Positions 24,091 through 60,762 of a stretch of 64,000 nt of DNA are shown here, piece by piece; within the stretch, counting starts at the first letter, position 1, and each line of letters opens with the position of its first letter. Position numbers and translations under genes: made by a program. Source of the DNA: a virus. The notes beneath the pieces are model-generated. The model did no database searches and was not told where the DNA came from. It saw nothing but the letters and a program-made list of their open reading frames with translations. Where the stretch lies: the IMG/VR virus record IMGVR_UViG_3300045988_180190. One strand, written 5' to 3'.

Positions 24091-24711
24091 TTAGACCTCC
24101 AATTTTTCTATTAAACTTAAATATTTACGTTTTATGCTATTTAAAGCACACGTTGTGCAACCCTTGCCACGCTTTGCATTTGCCTGTTCATCCAGCATCA
24201 TTTTTGCTAAAGTTTTTGATTTCTCATAAAATAAATTATTAGATATTTCTTCTGCACTTTCAATTTTTGCAAAATTTAAAATATCGAGAATTTTCCGTGC
24301 ATAAGGCTCACCGTCTTTTGAGTTTAAAATAAATTCCCTGCAAATATCCGAGTAAATACGGTCTATTGCGAACTTTCTATCCAAGTTTAAAGTTTTTAAT
24401 TCTTGTTTGGTTTTTAAGATTTCCGACAAATCAATTTTTTTTAATAAATCCGGAAGACAGCTTAAATTCGAATTATCAAATAACCATTCTGTTACTGTTA
24501 AAATAGCATTATTTAAGAGTTTGGGTAATATGGTATCAAACTTAAAATTAAATAACAGGTTGTTTTTTGATAAGTCTTCTAGCGTATACCATTTAGAATC
24601 TAAAGGCTTTTGGCTTTCGTTATCAAAAAGATAAATATTTAATGTGTCTCCTTTAAATACAACCTCTGATGGATTTATTTCTTTGTTGTTTAAATATATT
24701 TGCAATTTCAT
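24091..24711 (-). CDS. hypothetical protein (206 aa), paralog of 22952-23626
   Basis: Start moved to the ATG at 24711-24709, which overlaps the upstream TGA (ATGA). C-terminal KGCTTCALNSIKRKYLSLIEKL matches the CxxC-x6-RKY motif. Confidence 0.7.
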   Translation of the reverse strand: MKLQIYLNNKEINPSEVVFKGDTLNIYLFDNESQKPLDSKWYTLEDLSKNNLLFNFKFDTILPKLLNNAILTVTEWLFDNSNLSCLPDLLKKIDLSEILKTKQELKTLNLDRKFAIDRIYSDICREFILNSKDGEPYARKILDILNFAKIESAEEISNNLFYEKSKTLAKMMLDEQANAKRGKGCTTCALNSIKRKYLSLIEKLEV

Positions 24712-25457
24712 TTTACAAACGGGGGTTCCGAGCAATAAGCTATCCGTGATTGTAAATCCGACAGCAATTTACTCCTTTGTTCTATTTTAAGGTTAATTAA
24801 AAATAATAAAGTAAACAAAAGCAAGATTTTTTCCGACTTAGGAGCTTGTTTACTATTATTCAAAATCGGTATAAATGACAATAAGTCTAAAATTGTAGTA
24901 TTTAACAAACACTGATGTATATCCCCGAACGCAAGTGCTATTTCCGCTATATCATTTGGGGAAATCTCCTGCCAATCCGTTGCAAGATTTCCAATGACAT
25001 TCGATGTATCGTATACATACTTCAATTCTTTATCTTTTAACAAATCAGCCGTGTTTGATGCAATTGCAGATAACTGGCTGGTAAAGGTTAAAAGTTTTAA
25101 CTGAGATATAAACTTTTTATATTTATTTTGAAAATATTCTGCAGTTTCCCTTGATATGGGTAACTTAATACATTGAAACGTATATGGAAGCAAAAGCTTT
25201 AGGGTAAAACATGAAAAATTTATTTTTCTCTTATTGTTGTCAAACAATATATTGATTATATTGTCCGGAAACAATGTCGTGACCAATTCTCTTTCAGTTT
25301 TTATATATGTGGGATATCCATCTGTAACAGCTTGAAATTTTTTCCAAATCTCTTCGATGTTTGTATTAGGAAAACTAATCATCAAAGACTCCGGTAAATT
25401 AACAGGTCGTAATTTTGCAATATAAGAAATAGGTGTAGGTATTTTAAAGCTAAACAT
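24708..25457 (-). CDS. hypothetical protein (249 aa)
   Basis: Start moved to the ATG at 25457-25455 (MFSFKIP), 1 nt after the upstream stop. Confidence 0.65.
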   Translation of the reverse strand: MFSFKIPTPISYIAKLRPVNLPESLMISFPNTNIEEIWKKFQAVTDGYPTYIKTERELVTTLFPDNIINILFDNNKRKINFSCFTLKLLLPYTFQCIKLPISRETAEYFQNKYKKFISQLKLLTFTSQLSAIASNTADLLKDKELKYVYDTSNVIGNLATDWQEISPNDIAEIALAFGDIHQCLLNTTILDLLSFIPILNNSKQAPKSEKILLLFTLLFLINLKIEQRSKLLSDLQSRIAYCSEPPFVK

Positions 25458-40946: not shown

Positions 40947-41657
40947 TCAATGAGGCATAAGCTCAATAGCAAGTTTCCTAAGCCTTGCAGATTCAATTCT
41001 TGTTCTCCAAGCTGCCTCCCAATTTATTTGAATAATAAAATCTGATCTAAATAGCTTTTTATTTTCAGTTGGATTAATTGCTCTAGGAGTGGATATCTTC
41101 AATGGAGAATATTTTTTTAATCTTAGCAGGTAGCACAACTGTTCCGTTAAACCTGTAAAATGTGCGGCACATAACTGTGACATCATGGCACAATCTCCTA
41201 GGGTTTGCGCATAAGAAGAAAATGTGATTGTAGTGGATGCATTTAACCCCATCATAAACCCAGAATTATCTTCCAGCATTCTAGTCTTATTAGCTATAGT
41301 ACCTATATCAGACAAGCTAATATCTCCAACAGAAATAATAATCTTTGGATTTTGTGTACTTCCCAAATATTCTAATTTAGCTGCGTCATCTAAATAATTA
41401 TAATCAGCTGTTATGTCGATAATTGATTTATTTTTACCCTCTGGGTCTAAAATATAATCACTATAGGTATAATCAAATTTGTGAGCAGTATCTTCTAAGT
41501 ATGTTTTAAAATTTTCTTTGTCCGAAAAAAATATTTTAGTAATCATTAAGAAGATACGTCTTAAATTTAAAATATCCAAATTAGGAAAACAACCTAATTC
41601 ATTATTTAATAATTCAAGCTCAAATGCTGATGTTGTTTTATCTTTTGGAGTTCCCAT
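40947..41657 (-). CDS. hypothetical neck/tail-terminator-position protein (236 aa)
   Basis: Start moved from the GTG at 41681 (which lies inside the IS left end) to the ATG at 41657-41655 (MGTPKDK). It is preceded by GGAGAAAGG (41671-41663). Confidence 0.7.
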   Translation of the reverse strand: MGTPKDKTTSAFELELLNNELGCFPNLDILNLRRIFLMITKIFFSDKENFKTYLEDTAHKFDYTYSDYILDPEGKNKSIIDITADYNYLDDAAKLEYLGSTQNPKIIISVGDISLSDIGTIANKTRMLEDNSGFMMGLNASTTITFSSYAQTLGDCAMMSQLCAAHFTGLTEQLCYLLRLKKYSPLKISTPRAINPTENKKLFRSDFIIQINWEAAWRTRIESARLRKLAIELMPH

Positions 41658-41676
41658 AATTACCTTTCTCCGAAAG

Positions 41677-41697
41677 CCCACAAGCTTTAGCTGTGGG
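41677..41697 (+). repeat. IS left-end subterminal hairpin (IP-L)
   Basis: CCCACA-a-GC-TTTA-GC-TGTGGG: 6-bp stem, 1-nt bulge, 2 bp, TTTA loop. Overlaps the tnpA stop codon at 41687-41689. Confidence 0.8.
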
Positions 41698-42139
41698 ATG
41701 ATTTTTGATTAAAATATTTTGATTCATTTTTTTGCTGCTCAATATAAGTTTTTATTGTAGCTTCTCTTAAACACCCGACTGTATCTACATAATATGATCT
41801 AGACCAAAGTGTTGGAAGCTTACGTTTTAATTCTGGAAATTCTGATCTTAAAAATCTTGAGGTGTATCCTTTTATTTGACCGATTATAAATTGTGGTGCA
41901 GACGATGGCTCAGCAGATATAAAGAGATGTACATGATCTGGCATTATTTCTAATGCTTTAATTGTCCAATTCATGGCTTCACATTTTTCTTCAATTAATA
42001 TTTGCAATCTCGTAGAGATTTTATCCGTCAACACAGGTCTTCTAAATTTGGGAGACCATATGAAGTGATAGCTACAATTGAAAACAGCTGTGTTTGAAGT
42101 TTTCCATCTAATTTTTGAAATTTTATTATTGACACTCAT
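41687..42139 (-). CDS. tnpA: IS200/IS605 family Y1 (HUH) transposase TnpA (150 aa)
   Basis: YHFIWSPKFRRPVL, the HUH motif MPDHVHLFIS, and the catalytic-Tyr region LWSRSYYVDTVG. Confidence 0.95.
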   Translation of the reverse strand: MSVNNKISKIRWKTSNTAVFNCSYHFIWSPKFRRPVLTDKISTRLQILIEEKCEAMNWTIKALEIMPDHVHLFISAEPSSAPQFIIGQIKGYTSRFLRSEFPELKRKLPTLWSRSYYVDTVGCLREATIKTYIEQQKNESKYFNQKSSHS

Positions 42140-42174
42140 AGTATTATTTTAATAACTTAATATATAAAATATAA

Positions 42175-43233
42175 ATGATAAAAACTTTTAAAGTCAAACA
42201 TAATCGTGACTTGTCTGTAGAGCTCCGAAAAGCACTGCAAGTCTCAATATTTGCTTTAAAACACAAGTGTACATCTTCAGCCCAAGTTAAACAATTTGGA
42301 TTAAAATCGATAATTTCTAACCAGATAATCAGAAAGATTATTCGTAATAAACGAATAAAGTCTATACATAATGCGAATCTTATCATACCTCAGCAAGGCA
42401 TTACATACAAAAACAACATTGTTAGAATTCCCTGTTTGGACCTAAGTATAGACTTTTTTATTTCTGGCTTTTTAAAAATAAACCAAATCGAACTTAACTC
42501 TGAATATGCTTTTATTAGCTGTGATTTTCCGAGCGAACCTACGAGAGATAGCACTAATTATATAGGTGTGGATTTGAATACAACTGGACATATGGCTGTT
42601 GCTGCAAACCCTCTAACAGGCAAAGTTTGGAAGTTAAATAAGAAATCTAGTTTCACTCGGTCTAAATATAGACAAATAAGAAAAAAATTGTCCAGACAAA
42701 AGAAATTTAAAGTTATTAAAAGATTAAAAAATCGTGAACAACGTATTTGCAAAGACTTAGACCATAAAGTATCCACTTTTTTAGTCACGCTCGCTAAAAC
42801 ACAAAATTGTGGTTTGCGTTTAGAAAATTTAACTAATATTCGTAAAACATCAAAAAATAAATCTAAAGCATTTAAAGCTTCTTTGAACAATTGGTCATTC
42901 TATCAATTTAGAACGATGATAGATTATAAAGCCAAGTTGCTTGGAGTTAAAGTAGAATATATTGATCCGCGTTATACATCTCAAGCTGATAGTAGGACCG
43001 GACATATAGGAATACGCAATGCAAAGACATTCAAATCTGTTGATACCTCAACAGTTGAGCATGCTGATGTTAATGCTGCTTTTAATATTGCATTAAATCA
43101 ATTAAACATAGCTCAATTGCGTGCAGAAAGAGATGCACGCAAAAGCCATAAGGAAAATACTCCTTTAACTGACTTGGCTTTAAAGGCTCCTTCTAATAAA
43201 AGCAAGAAGACCTTAGAACCCAACGCGCTTTAG
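42175..43233 (+). CDS. tnpB: TnpB (IS605 OrfB-type RNA-guided nuclease), compact 352 aa, zinc-ribbon cysteines absent
   Basis: RuvC-I IGVDLN (D133), RuvC-II GLRLENL (E217) and RuvC-III HADVNAAFNI (D298). The PRYTSQ motif is followed by ADSRTGH...FKSVDTSTVEH where CxxC...CxxC is normally found. Confidence 0.9.
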   Translation: MIKTFKVKHNRDLSVELRKALQVSIFALKHKCTSSAQVKQFGLKSIISNQIIRKIIRNKRIKSIHNANLIIPQQGITYKNNIVRIPCLDLSIDFFISGFLKINQIELNSEYAFISCDFPSEPTRDSTNYIGVDLNTTGHMAVAANPLTGKVWKLNKKSSFTRSKYRQIRKKLSRQKKFKVIKRLKNREQRICKDLDHKVSTFLVTLAKTQNCGLRLENLTNIRKTSKNKSKAFKASLNNWSFYQFRTMIDYKAKLLGVKVEYIDPRYTSQADSRTGHIGIRNAKTFKSVDTSTVEHADVNAAFNIALNQLNIAQLRAERDARKSHKENTPLTDLALKAPSNKSKKTLEPNAL

Positions 43234-43270
43234 CCGTTGGAGTATGTCAGTGGTCTAAGCAAGGTTTAAT
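43100..43270 (+). ncRNA. predicted omega (right-end) RNA of TnpB: scaffold over the tnpB 3' end and RE, guide from the flanking phage sequence
   Basis: By analogy with characterised TnpB systems. A perfect 9-bp stem TTGCGTGCA/TGCACGCAA (43117-43142) lies inside the coding sequence, together with the RE hairpin at 43220-43240. The guide would start at 43251 (TGGTCTAAGCAAGGTTTAAT). The 5' boundary is not determinable by eye. Confidence 0.35.
43220..43240 (+). repeat. IS right-end subterminal hairpin (IP-R)
   Basis: CCAACG-c-GC-TTTA-GC-CGTTGG: same architecture as the LE hairpin with a covarying outer stem. Overlaps the tnpB stop codon at 43231-43233. Confidence 0.8.
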
Positions 43271-44687: not shown

Positions 44688-44710
44688 GAAACAGATTATA
44701 TTATTATAGT

Positions 44711-44742
44711 TTTATATTGATTACATTCTAACGAATTGTCAA
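44711..44742 (-). promoter_or_regulatory. candidate sigma-70-type promoter for the neck/tail unit
   Basis: On the minus strand, TTGACA (44742-44737) lies right after the capsid terminator, with CAATAT/AATATA/TATAAA alternatives 17-20 nt downstream. The -10 assignment is ambiguous. Confidence 0.25.
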
Positions 44743-44778
44743 AAATAAAATACGCCCAAGGGTATCCCTGGGCGTATT
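44741..44778 (-). terminator. factor-independent terminator after the major capsid gene
   Basis: AATACGCCCA (44749-44758) pairs with TGGGCGTATT (44769-44778), plus inner GGG/CCC pairs. On the minus strand it is followed by TTATTTTT. Confidence 0.8.
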
Positions 44779-44797
44779 ATTAAGAGTTGGAGTCTGA

Positions 44798-45829
44798 CTA
44801 GCCCCCAGCCTTTGTGCCCTCCGCGAGAGCAATCTGAGGCTTGATTTGTGGGTAAGCATTCATCGCAGCCTCTCCACCACGGAGAACAACCTTGGCAACG
44901 CCTGCGGTGTTAGCAATGAGCATACCTATAACTTCCTCAGCGCAGCAGGATATGCGATCCTTTTCACGCTTTACGTACATTACCGGCTTATAGAGCTCGG
45001 CGCATTTTCCGAGGTAATCTTCTTCCGTAAAGGCCATTATAACATTATCTGGAACAATGTCGGTCTTGAAAGTGGATATCCACTTCATACCGTAAACATT
45101 TGTACCGTCAAATGCCTTTGCACCTTCTTGGAACACCTTGCTAGTTAGGTCAACACCAAATTGGAGGAAGTTGTTATACTTTCCGTTTGTAAGTTGGCTG
45201 AATGTGACCTTGTTGACAAGGTTTACGCCATGGTTAATGCTATGCTTTGTGAAGATATTAACAATCTCGTTCATCACCACTGGTTCCATACCACCAGAGA
45301 AGGTATAGACACCGTTGTTCTGAGCAGCCACGCTATCAGCGAGGTTGTACCATACGAGGTCTTCTGTCTTAACCATGTTCTTTAGACCGGTATCCATTAT
45401 TACCTTGCGGAGGTCGAATGGATAAGTATCAAGTGTAACACGATTCTTTTGGAATTCTGGTGTCGCGATCTTGAAGAAGGTCATTGGAGCCTTGTCTGCT
45501 CTGTAGTACTGTGTATGTGTTCCTTGGTCAAAGGGAAGAACAGCTGCAGGATAGTTTGTGGGCTCAATGTAGAACATAGCTACTGGGTAGTCTGTGTTGA
45601 ACATTGGGACAAGTCTTTTATCACCCGAACCATTAAAGGTTTCAAAATGACATATTTGGCGTGTCCATCCTTTTTCGAATACTTGTTTGCGGATAAATGA
45701 AGTACCTGCGGACGAAGCCATCTTGCAAATACCCTCTCCACAGCTACCTAATTCTTGAACAAGCCTGTCGTTAAGTGCTTCACCTGAAACACCATTTAAG
45801 CTTAAATCTATATCTTTATATTCGTCCAT
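44798..45829 (-). CDS. major capsid protein, HK97-fold / lambda-E-size class (343 aa)
   Basis: Position after the protease, scaffold and decoration-like genes. The approximately 340-aa size, elevated GC and biased codons suggest high expression. A terminator follows directly. General HK97-like pattern, with no residue-level confirmation. Confidence 0.75.
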   Translation of the reverse strand: MDEYKDIDLSLNGVSGEALNDRLVQELGSCGEGICKMASSAGTSFIRKQVFEKGWTRQICHFETFNGSGDKRLVPMFNTDYPVAMFYIEPTNYPAAVLPFDQGTHTQYYRADKAPMTFFKIATPEFQKNRVTLDTYPFDLRKVIMDTGLKNMVKTEDLVWYNLADSVAAQNNGVYTFSGGMEPVVMNEIVNIFTKHSINHGVNLVNKVTFSQLTNGKYNNFLQFGVDLTSKVFQEGAKAFDGTNVYGMKWISTFKTDIVPDNVIMAFTEEDYLGKCAELYKPVMYVKREKDRISCCAEEVIGMLIANTAGVAKVVLRGGEAAMNAYPQIKPQIALAEGTKAGG

Positions 45830-58485: not shown

Positions 58486-60762
58486 CTAAAATCTACCTGT
58501 TTTATCTACGTTTTCCGCAAAATCTGGCATAGACATTCTAACGAACGGGTCTATATTGTCTTTAATATTTGTCTTATAACCTCTTACCGCAGATTCTACA
58601 TAATTTTTAGCCTGGTAAGGAGCATTTGCTCTTTCCAAGAAATCTGTATTTCCCTTATTGGGAACCTCTCTAAGTCTAACATACACAGGAGAAAAACCTG
58701 GTTCATTATCCGAAACATAAAGCTCATCTGTAATACCCGTGCGCTTAATATGGTCCAGCATCTTATTTGTAAGTTTTGTTCCTATTGTGTAATGTAATAC
58801 TGGGGCTTGCAAGTATTTGCCTTTTAAATTAACATTTTTATCATTGAGCTTTACTTTTTTTGCATCTTTGTCCGGTACATAAGAAGCCTCTAAAGCATTA
58901 TAAGATACTATATCGCCAGGTAAGTAATCTCCTAATCCATCTGGATCGGTAATTTCTACCTTATCTACGATACCTCTAGCTAGGACTTCTAAATTTCTTT
59001 TATGCGCCGGTGCGTTACTATCGTCCAGTAGCTGTTTTCCCGTTTCCACGAAAACTCTCCTACCTTCCCCGAGTCCTCTTAGGCGTACAACGTCCTCTAA
59101 GTCTACTAAACCATCTGCTAGCTGGTCTCCCTGCTCGACTTCTTGACCTTCTTTAACTTCTATGTGAGAATCCGGGTCAGCATAATGCTCTATTCCATTA
59201 ACAACTATATAAGTTCCACCTTGAGGAGCTGGTGTTATTCTTTCCACTCTCCCATCTGATTCTGCTAGAGGGGCACGAGATTTATAGTGCTCTGGAGATT
59301 CAAAAAACTGGTTAATATAATTAAATCCCGAAAAGGTTCTCTTCTTTCCTTTGAATCCCCCAGCTTCGTGTTTTGAAGAATTATGTGACAAGAGACCATT
59401 TTTTAATACGAATAAATGTGTATCTCCACTAATTTCTATGTCAAAACAATGCTGCAATCCTACATAGCGAATCTGTGTAATCTTCGCAGGGTCACCCCTT
59501 ACGTCTAAACATAAATTTGAGTCAAATATTTCTTGCACTGGAAGGTCTTTTAATTCTCCGTATATTTTAAATCTATGTTGTCTAGTACAAACAACAGAAT
59601 ACTCTATATCATCAACAGAAAATATAACCTCATATACATTGCGAATATTCTGGTCTATAACAGAAATGATTTCCTCAGGAACTAGTGACTTACCATCTTT
59701 AGAGATACTTATTACCTTCTCCCCTGGTTTTAAATCCTTAATTTTTTTAAACTGCTGTGACCATAGCATAACTTCTGTATCTTGATGCAAGCATAGTCCG
59801 CCCTGAATAGCAGGCTCACTAACAGAAGTTGCCGCTGCAATTCCTGCATGGAACTCTCCAATTCTAGGCAATCTTTTATTGTAATCCAATCCAAAAGCTT
59901 CTGCAGAAATACCTTCGGGAGAAACTGTGGCAATTGGAGAATGCACTATCACAGTTTTTACACCTTTATTTTTAAGAGAATTTAGTACGTCACGATCAAC
60001 TATGGTTCCCTCAGCAAATCCTCCCGCCGGACGCGCAAGCACTCGTCCGTAAAGTGATGAGTCGTCTATGTCTAAGTCTATACCATTATTGGAAAGATCT
60101 TTTTTAGACGTAATCATCATATTTGCCACTGGGCGAAATAAACTTTTACCCCAACCTCCAAATTTAGCTGTACTTTTTTTGATAGCGATAGTTGAAGCTC
60201 TTGTACCATAAGTGCTAGCTAAATATTCTGGAATGGATAATCCTTCTCCAAAACTTTTCTTAACAAAGAAAGGAATCGTTCTACCCTTATAATCTGTATA
60301 GAGTGCTGGAGTTGTAATTAAAGCTTTTAACTGAAAGGGAGAACCTCTTGCTCCAGAGGATACAGAGTTATAAAGATTATTATGCTTTTCTTTAGCAGCA
60401 TTCAGTGTATCTTTCTCAAGCTTTGTAGCATAACGTTCGTATACCTCCATTATAGCTTTGTTCTTTTTGTTTTCATCTTTTATATTCCTCCTTAAAAACT
60501 GCACCTCTTTATGCATTTCTTCCAGTGCAGCTTCCTTATCAAATGGAGGTTTAAAATCCGAAAGTTTCAAAGTCTGTCCAGAGTAGTATACTGATTTACG
60601 AGCAATATCCATTAATTTATCCATTATATCCCTGTATCTGTCTGGATATTTTTCAGCAATAAGAGACTGCAACTCGTTTATTGACTTCGTGTCATATGTG
60701 CGAGTGTAGTCCCTTATATCCTCGGGTAAAACGGAATTAATTAAATATTGAATAGCTTTCAC
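58486..60762 (-). CDS. DNA-directed RNA polymerase beta-prime subunit, C-terminal half (phage multisubunit-RNAP type), interrupted by a mini-intein (758 aa precursor, about 620 aa spliced)
   Basis: Collinear with bacterial RpoC from SGARGS onward. Matching segments: SGARGSPFQLKAL; FGEGLSIPEYLASTYGTRAS (bridge-helix region); LYGRVLA; GEFHAGIAAATSVSEPAIQGGL[intein]SSKHEAGG (trigger loop, compare [28 protein letters not shown]); APLAESDGRV; VKEGQEVEQGDQLADG; KRNLEVLARG. The start codon is GTG (60762-60760). Confidence 0.85.
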   Translation of the reverse strand: MKAIQYLINSVLPEDIRDYTRTYDTKSINELQSLIAEKYPDRYRDIMDKLMDIARKSVYYSGQTLKLSDFKPPFDKEAALEEMHKEVQFLRRNIKDENKKNKAIMEVYERYATKLEKDTLNAAKEKHNNLYNSVSSGARGSPFQLKALITTPALYTDYKGRTIPFFVKKSFGEGLSIPEYLASTYGTRASTIAIKKSTAKFGGWGKSLFRPVANMMITSKKDLSNNGIDLDIDDSSLYGRVLARPAGGFAEGTIVDRDVLNSLKNKGVKTVIVHSPIATVSPEGISAEAFGLDYNKRLPRIGEFHAGIAAATSVSEPAIQGGLCLHQDTEVMLWSQQFKKIKDLKPGEKVISISKDGKSLVPEEIISVIDQNIRNVYEVIFSVDDIEYSVVCTRQHRFKIYGELKDLPVQEIFDSNLCLDVRGDPAKITQIRYVGLQHCFDIEISGDTHLFVLKNGLLSHNSSKHEAGGFKGKKRTFSGFNYINQFFESPEHYKSRAPLAESDGRVERITPAPQGGTYIVVNGIEHYADPDSHIEVKEGQEVEQGDQLADGLVDLEDVVRLRGLGEGRRVFVETGKQLLDDSNAPAHKRNLEVLARGIVDKVEITDPDGLGDYLPGDIVSYNALEASYVPDKDAKKVKLNDKNVNLKGKYLQAPVLHYTIGTKLTNKMLDHIKRTGITDELYVSDNEPGFSPVYVRLREVPNKGNTDFLERANAPYQAKNYVESAVRGYKTNIKDNIDPFVRMSMPDFAENVDKTGRF
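59380..59793 (-). mobile_element. mini-intein (138 aa, Hint domain only, no homing endonuclease) in the beta-prime trigger loop
   Basis: Cys1 (TGC, 59793-59791) in block A CLHQDTEV. Block B VCTRQHRF (TxxH). Block F CFDIEISGDTHLFVL. Block G NGLLSHN, with terminal His-Asn (Asn 59382-59380) followed by Ser+1 (59379-59377). Removing it restores the RpoC trigger-loop consensus. Confidence 0.85.

Follow-up and report, generated by a model that had tools for sequence, protein, structure and literature searches.

The subject of this analysis is a stretch of viral DNA of 64,000 nucleotides (IMG/VR record IMGVR_UViG_3300045988_180190), referred to as the window. It carries a complete insertion sequence (IS) of the IS200/IS605 family that encodes two proteins: a transposase, TnpA, and a TnpB from which the cysteines of the zinc site have been lost. 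The IS is probably an autonomous and recently mobile element of the IS605 type, whose zinc-free TnpB would use a guide RNA to home on sites that lack the element. This TnpB departs from the known ones at the zinc site; otherwise, it fits the published TnpB cycle. Nearly all predictions of the earlier note that sequence data can address were borne out. The coordinates of all features are collected in Table 1.

The assignment of the protein to the TnpB family is supported by matches to NCBIfam guided_TnpB (129 bits; cut-off 100) and Pfam Cas12f1-like_TNB (1.8e-17). The earlier note on this DNA, which was made from the letters alone, placed the RuvC catalytic triad at D133, E217 and D298, and these positions were confirmed by HMMER alignment to AsCas12f, the effector from Acidibacillus sulfuroxidans. 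All three residues are unchanged across 71 homologues and throughout the cysteine-less clade described below. An AlphaFold2 model made from the 71 homologues has a mean predicted confidence (pLDDT) of 82.8, and a Foldseek comparison of the TnpB model to TnpB and Cas12f structures gave E-values of 1e-17 to 1e-8. The matches of the AlphaFold2 model include AsCas12f (E 9e-18), ISDra2 TnpB (E 4e-12), ISFba1 TnpB and Fanzor2. AsCas12f is the best solved-structure match (sequence E 2.5e-16, TM 0.64), and it differs from the window protein in that it is a CRISPR effector with crRNA and tracrRNA, has an extra, N-terminal zinc finger and retains cysteines in its target nucleic-acid-binding (TNB) domain (QRCSECG...FKCRACG).

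In the window protein, the TNB segment inserted in RuvC lacks the CxxC...CxxC zinc finger that is characteristic of TnpB. The stretch from PRYTSQ to HADVNAA reads ADSRTGHIGIRNAKTFKSVDTSTVE and contains no cysteine at all, the only cysteines of the protein being residues 32, 87, 116, 192 and 212. The four cysteine columns of relatives (Q.CSRCG...FKCP.CGHV) are occupied by D272, T275, S288 and T291 and, in the HMMER alignment to AsCas12f, QADSRTGHI lies opposite QRCSECGNI and FKSVDTSTVEHAD opposite FKCRACGYEANAD. The related protein clusters P0002–P0008, which are 64–69% identical to the window TnpB, read ADS(R/K)(S/T)G...FKT(T/A)N-N(V/A)VEH in this region, with the fourth cysteine column deleted. 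As a result of these substitutions and the deleted column, the cysteines must be regarded as lost and not as shifted. The earlier note was right about the loss itself; the replacements that it listed (Ala, Arg, Ser and Thr) were one register off, the actual residues being D, T, S and T. The TNB insert of this lineage has lost all four ligands and is nevertheless under purifying selection (see below), and its fold or function appears to have become independent of zinc.

There is precedent for a RuvC insert that works without zinc, as large Cas12 effectors such as Cas12a have a zinc-free Nuc/TNB domain. Inserts of the Cas12a type are much larger and remodelled, whereas the insert of approximately 33 residues described here keeps its length and flanks and swaps the ligands only. 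An alternative is that the insert still needs a metal, bound by other ligands (D272 with residues elsewhere, or a dimer interface), or that it needs a protein partner supplied by the host or the phage. Here, D272 never varies within the cysteine-less clade and could bind a metal, the Cas12f relatives matched in the PDB are dimers, and a phage-encoded miniature Cas12 can depend on a host protein, thioredoxin (10.1101/2025.01.20.633832). The other three ligand positions are, however, Thr, Ser or Asn or are deleted, H277 varies among the clade members and conserved pairs of Cys or His are absent. In addition, no partner travels with the IS, which consists of tnpA and tnpB only. Dependence on another metal site or on a partner is accordingly considered improbable.

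A survey for other cysteine-less TnpB proteins, which the earlier note had proposed, found a clade of them: eight database clusters (P0001–P0008), 64–99% identical to the window TnpB and all without the cysteines. When the best 120 homologues are considered, 111 have the four cysteines (CCCC) and the remaining nine make up this clade. Among the best 150 representatives from a library of 1.84 billion proteins, 98 are CCCC, and most of the others are fragments missing the cysteine columns. Besides the clade, these 150 representatives include only scattered partial losses, of which the most extreme is P0142, where three of the four zinc ligands are gone and RuvC is broken (D-E-N). Four cysteines are also found in 79 of the best 80 cellular loci, in a search set of one genome per species (74 CCCC and five CxxC..CxC; the last is CCCY). 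These 80 loci are at most 55% identical to the window TnpB and come mostly from methanogenic archaea. The nearest cysteine-containing relatives (48–55% identity) belong overwhelmingly to archaea, methanogens among them, and a small number come from bacterial metagenome-assembled genomes (Proteiniphilum, Acholeplasmataceae, Patescibacteria).

Those clade members whose context can be read are all on phage-like contigs, the majority of which have proteins in common with the window. Copies of the IS were sought in cellular genomes for the purpose of host identification, and the best relatives there were only up to 55% identical. In the INPHARED phages, a search for near-identical DNA gave no match and tblastn gave remote TnpB matches only. 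An IMG/VR scan with a 15-mer pattern of the right end gave mostly chance matches, with at least two real family members (L120 and L137) among the matches listed. A search of one literature library for a transposon-borne TnpB with intact RuvC and without zinc ligands found no description of one, which is absence of evidence only.

Purifying selection has acted on the cysteine-less protein. Within the clade, Nei-Gojobori ratios of nonsynonymous to synonymous divergence (dN/dS, or omega) are 0.07–0.23 at every depth, with dS reaching >1. Unsaturated pairs give omega values of 0.14 (L002/L003, dS 0.40) and 0.08 (L006/L120, dS 0.21), and ratios for the near-identical copies lie within the range of the clade as well. 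By segment, pN/pS is 0.27 for the TNB codons 265–297 and 0.29 for the RuvC core. As pS is high in the TNB segment (0.57), the constraint there acts on the protein. The open reading frames are intact in every copy, including those copies that have TnpB only. On this codon-level evidence, the cysteine-less TnpB is not decaying and appears to stay functional under purifying selection.

The same data bear on a different view of the gene, in which TnpA is all that counts, tnpB decays as a passenger and loss of the cysteines is an early step of pseudogenisation. A single sequence that has lost four ligands, all of them normally invariant, could give the picture of such early decay. This view is already contradicted by the low dN/dS over such depth, the intact reading frames, a TNB segment that is constrained like the RuvC core and the covariation of the predicted RNA described below, and decay is judged extremely improbable.

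The element itself has the anatomy of the IS200/IS605 family: a Y1 transposase, subterminal hairpins and insertion 3' of TTAC without target duplication. TnpA has the HUH motif (H69-V-H, residues 69–71) and the tyrosine Y132 in YIEQQ. The left end reads GAAAG followed by a hairpin and the right end reads GAAC followed by a hairpin. The two hairpins are alike in build (6 bp, a bulge and 2 bp, with a TTTA loop) and there are no terminal inverted repeats. In relatives, the stem bases of the end hairpins change and pairing is kept: GAAAG and the left hairpin are retained in L002, L003 and L011 with altered stem bases (CCAAGG/CCTTGG), and in the right hairpin a G-C pair has been swapped for C-G. 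Every clade member ends in AGTAT(G/A)TCAG, with divergence after it, and TTAC precedes the left end in L002 and L003/4 as well. IS608 likewise has AAAG beside its left hairpin and TTAC as its target, and AAAG would here, as in IS608, be the guide tetranucleotide that pairs with TTAC. An Rfam scan of the element found nothing relevant.

Mobility of the element is seen when its copies are compared. The copy in L001 is 99.2% identical over window positions 41658–43250, in a phage backbone that is only 65–80% identical, and it sits one gene junction further along. Near-identical copies occupy 9–10 independent sites, with a left flank that ends in TTAC and a length of 1587 bp throughout. TTAC thus precedes the left end at all of these sites, as it should if it is both the TnpA target and the target-adjacent motif (TAM) of TnpB, which is what the earlier note had proposed. 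The copies diverge right after ...GGAGTATGTCAG, that is, from 43251 on, and the right-end boundary put forward at 43250 proved to be exact. The flank at the right end, and hence the predicted guide (TGGTCTAAGCAAGGTTTAAT in the window), differs with each insertion.

Further evidence came from sites at which the element is absent. The earlier note had predicted that the uninterrupted junction would exist in sibling phages, and an IMG/VR search with the flanking, 311-residue phage protein gave seven sibling loci, among which it does. The minus strand of three of them (L013, L015 and L017) reads ...TTAGACCAGTAATTATGGGAACTCC, which is the junction produced by deleting 41664–43250, and their plus strand has TTAC followed by a flank that is identical at 19/20 positions, with the mismatch at position 9. 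A fourth, L012 (96.5–98.4% identical), gives a gapless alignment over the junction as reconstructed, 41663|43251. Here, the flank is identical at 20/20 positions and TCAC replaces TTAC, by which the stop codon on the coding strand, TAA, becomes TGA. In addition, the empty site predicted from the flanks of L027 was found within the window itself, at 24695–24746, with a single mismatch at guide position 7 (19/20). No target duplication is present in either of these empty-site comparisons. One and the same genome therefore holds the IS in one place and could be targeted by it in a second place.

Several further observations concern the ends and flanks of the copies. The left end begins with a hypervariable dinucleotide (41664–41665), which reads CT, AA, AT or GA in the window, L001, L019, L024–L027 and L231–L234, although identity among these copies is otherwise 98% or higher. 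An origin of this dinucleotide from the target, or by carry-over of a former right-end flank, was considered and rejected, as it is absent from the empty sites and is inherited with the IS sub-lineage across sites. L025 and L231 have a common left flank, …AATCGTTTAC, and different right flanks, AACGCCGTC… and CTTTTGTGT…, respectively. This suggests a rearrangement or indel beside the right end, and such an event would give the copy another guide.

Sibling phages also carry other TnpB genes. L012 has another, TnpB-only element (positions 1074–2429) which encodes 402 residues with a canonical CNSCG...CPKCG zinc site and lies between the gene for the capsid-like protein and a gene of 167 residues; this site is empty in the window (~44688–44797). 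Second TnpB genes are present in L005, L006 and L017. Clearly, TnpB insertions of several distinct kinds, placed at gene junctions, vary from one sibling phage to the next. A TnpB-only member of the cysteine-less clade, P0007, ends 27 nt upstream of phage genes for tRNA-Gln and tRNA-Leu (region L009:1125–1319), and this locus was found again in five contigs from different samples. Because of this placement, its predicted guide would target the region just upstream of the tRNA cluster.

An omega-RNA, the guide RNA of TnpB, is predicted to have its scaffold in the tnpB 3' end together with the right end of the IS. The 180 nt before the right-end terminus fold with z = -4.26 relative to shuffles, as a single sequence. 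RNAalifold, applied to eight clade sequences, gave 43 pairs in seven helices with 97.7% of cells paired. Changes on both sides are found in 17/43 pairs, compared to 6.9 +/- 1.9 after column shuffling (0/500 as high), and in a control in which the 3' partners were slid by 1–3 columns only 0–4 pairs were compensatory. The third helix is the perfect 9-bp stem formed by TTGCGTGCA and TGCACGCAA, which the earlier note had located exactly; 4/9 of its pairs covary and 100% of cells are paired, though it lies within the codons for QLRAERDARK. Covariation, including that of this stem, supports the embedded RNA structure that had been proposed. Synonymous divergence falls to 0.28–0.35 in codons 298–352, as is expected if RNA structure overlaps the coding sequence. 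In L005, a TnpB-only copy, the TnpA-binding hairpin of the right end is gone and GTATGTCAG and the upstream helices are kept, a pattern that is consistent with an RNA selected for its role with TnpB and not with TnpA. The arrangement typical of TnpB, a structured omega-RNA at the gene's 3' end and right end with a guide from the right-end flank, is therefore present at the level of sequence.

These features can be assembled into a cycle. TnpA would recognise both subterminal hairpins and insert the IS on the 3' side of TTAC, with no duplication of the target. The tnpB 3' end and the right end would be transcribed as an omega-RNA with a scaffold at approximately 43071–43250 and a guide from 43251 to approximately 43270. 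The complex of TnpB and omega-RNA would then recognise TTAC followed by TGGTCTAAGCAAGGTTTAAT, a sequence confined to genomes, or daughter strands, that lack the IS. Here, the RuvC site (D133/E217/D298) would cut the IS-less target, and recombination with an IS-bearing copy would restore or spread the element after the cut. In this way, the IS would be retained when it excises, and genomes that bear it would be favoured in mixed infections. Homing of this kind, in which TnpB cuts the element-free site and recombination restores the element, has been described (PMC10055086), as has TnpB gene drive on multicopy plasmids (PMC11870625). The idea of drive itself is thus already published, and its application to phage co-infection would be a reasonable extension by analogy. 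The full proposal, in which a phage-restricted lineage of TnpB proteins of 339–354 residues is zinc-independent and catalytically active and spreads by gene drive when large phages co-infect, with individual genomes alternately carriers and targets, is put forward tentatively and may well not hold in all its parts.

A number of points weigh against zinc-free cleavage and homing. Characterised TnpB and Cas12f enzymes all carry the CCCC site (PMC10097598). When AlphaFold2 was given the eight cysteine-less sequences alone, pLDDT was <50 at residues 265–316; prediction does not show how the insert folds without zinc, and the confident model borrows signal from cysteine-containing homologues. No Rfam family matches the predicted omega-RNA. 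A reading of TCAC in L012 as an escape mutation was rejected, as a change somewhere in four given bases has p of ~0.13 at 3.5% divergence and is not evidence of nuclease pressure; the guide mismatches in other empty alleles, considered in the same way, are not significant given the background divergence. Finally, purifying selection is equally expected if the protein merely bound DNA.

This last point leads to a further alternative, which is that the cysteine-less TnpB binds omega-RNA and target without making double-strand breaks. It would then act as an RNA-guided binder or roadblock like TldR or Cas12m, or regulate transposition or the adjacent phage genes. TldRs are TnpB derivatives, some of them phage-associated, which have lost the zinc-finger region, and descriptions of zinc-finger loss have so far concerned nuclease-dead derivatives of this kind (10.1101/2023.11.30.569447). 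A binder would show conservation of omega-RNA just as it would purifying selection, and P0142, the other relative without three of four zinc ligands, has the D-E-N RuvC. However, TldRs show decay of RuvC and a truncated C-terminus (10.1101/2023.11.30.569447) and are immobile, having lost their transposon context. In contrast, the window TnpB is full length, resides in a mobile IS with TnpA and keeps the D-E-D triad, which is invariant throughout the clade. A guide that tracks each flank is also the arrangement of a homing element and not that of a fixed regulatory locus. Binding without cleavage is therefore judged unlikely, and homing by a zinc-free nuclease is the preferred explanation.

Comparison with characterised elements shows where the IS of the window is conventional and where it is not. 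It shares with IS608 and IS605 of Helicobacter pylori the Y1 HUH TnpA, subterminal hairpins and insertion 3' of TTAC without duplication and, with IS605, the divergent tnpA and tnpB. It differs from these in residing in a large phage and not in a bacterial chromosome, in the right-end cleavage site (TCAG) and in its short TnpB (352 residues), which is without zinc ligands and has archaeal proteins as its nearest cysteine-containing relatives. ISDra2 TnpB of Deinococcus radiodurans likewise has the RuvC D-E-D with a TNB insert, which lies between beta5 and alpha4, an omega-RNA over the gene's 3' end and the right end, a TAM that equals the target and a guide from the right-end flank (PMC10097598). 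Its zinc finger is formed by C331, C334, C351 and C354 (PMC10097598), the positions of D, T, S and T here. The two proteins are ~16% identical, and they differ in size (352 residues here versus ~408 in the PDB chains) and in TAM (TTAC here versus TTGAT).

The window is identified as phage because it encodes a protein resembling major capsid proteins and another resembling the beta' subunit of RNA polymerase. Apart from the inserted element, its genes form a single block on the minus strand, and tnpB is the only large gene on the plus strand. Pfam and PHROG scans of 24 neighbouring phage proteins gave almost no matches. Contigs related to the window are 100–180 kb, and the host replicon is a large phage with its own multisubunit RNA polymerase. 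The intein in the RNA polymerase beta' protein is another selfish element of the same phage group, and intein/LAGLIDADG signals are also found in the beta' homologues of L003 and L233. The structural and RNA polymerase genes resemble those of bacterial phages, whereas the nearest cysteine-containing TnpB relatives are overwhelmingly archaeal.

The IS lies at the junction of two phage genes; family searches with these gave no match that would bear out the neck gene named in the earlier note. With the insertion present, the upstream, 311-residue gene ends in ..LDH*, its last sense codon and stop being supplied by the IS end. The empty site restores a ..LDQ* C-terminus (compare ..LNQ* in L001), with TTAC, which is GTAA on the minus strand, giving the TAA stop of this gene in IS-free siblings. 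In those siblings, the junction before the downstream gene reads ..CAGTAATTATGGGAACTCC, and the downstream gene starts 2 nt past the upstream stop without a motif of the GGAGAAAGG type. The left end of the IS (41655–41676, minus strand) places GGAGAAAGG 5 nt upstream of the downstream ATG. A ribosome-binding site supplied by the element may make insertion at a gene junction tolerable. The orientation of tnpA is that of the flanking phage genes in all near-identical copies except L233.

Table 1. Positions of the insertion sequence, its parts and neighbouring phage features in the window
Feature	Position	Strand	Remarks
Complete IS200/IS605-family element	41664–43250	+	1587 bp; IS605-like, divergent tnpA/tnpB
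TTAC, TnpA target and predicted TnpB TAM	41660–41663	+	directly 5' of left end
Left-end module	41673–41697	+	AAAG 41673–41676, then hairpin CCCACA..TGTGGG 41677–41697; read from sequence
tnpA, Y1 (HUH) transposase, 150 residues	41687–42139	-	Pfam Y1_Tnp 1.8e-38; NCBIfam transpos_IS200 3e-41
tnpB, 352 residues	42175–43233	+	RuvC triad intact, zinc-ribbon Cys absent
D133 codon (RuvC-I)	42571–42573	+	motif IGVDLNT; aligns with D of GIDLG in AsCas12f
E217 codon (RuvC-II)	42823–42825	+	motif LRLENLT; aligns with E of QMEDL in AsCas12f
TNB segment, codons 265–297	42967–43065	+	target nucleic-acid-binding domain inserted in RuvC
D298 codon (RuvC-III)	43066–43068	+	motif EHADVNA; aligns with D of NADYNAA in AsCas12f
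Predicted omega-RNA scaffold	43071–43250	+	overlaps tnpB 3' end and right end; 5' limit approximate
Perfect 9-bp stem, 8-nt loop	43117–43142	+	helix 3 of scaffold
Right end	43220–43250	+	hairpin CCAACG..CGTTGG (43220–43240) and AGTATGTCAG up to cleavage site
Predicted guide-templating flank	43251–43270	+	TGGTCTAAGCAAGGTTTAAT; antisense to last codons of 311-residue gene
Empty allele of L027–L030 insertion site	24713–24736	+	TTAC + AAACGGGGGTTCCGAGCAAT
Downstream phage gene	40947–41657	-	likely true start ATG at 41657 (MGTPKDK), 6 nt from IS left end
Phage gene upstream of insertion, 311 residues	43247–44182	-	Pfam, PHROG: no match
Major-capsid-like protein	44798–45829		24% identity to capsid proteins of Salmonella phage Arash and ~187-kb Vibrio phages
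RNA polymerase beta'-like protein	58486–60762	-	Rpb1 domains 4 and 5, Hint intein inside

The zinc ribbon has been treated as fixed in TnpB, Fanzor and Cas12f, and a lineage that is free of zinc and retains the RuvC triad and guide RNA would show it to be a dispensable part of the minimal Cas12 core. The value of the finding hinges on the zinc-free enzyme cleaving DNA; if it does, a metal-free scaffold of ~340–350 residues would be at hand for engineering. The phages also offer an unusually clean, natural presence/absence polymorphism of TnpB elements in a virus population, with many TTAC junctions and matching empty sites. As a result, TnpB gene drive, which was shown on plasmids, becomes directly testable in phage co-infection.

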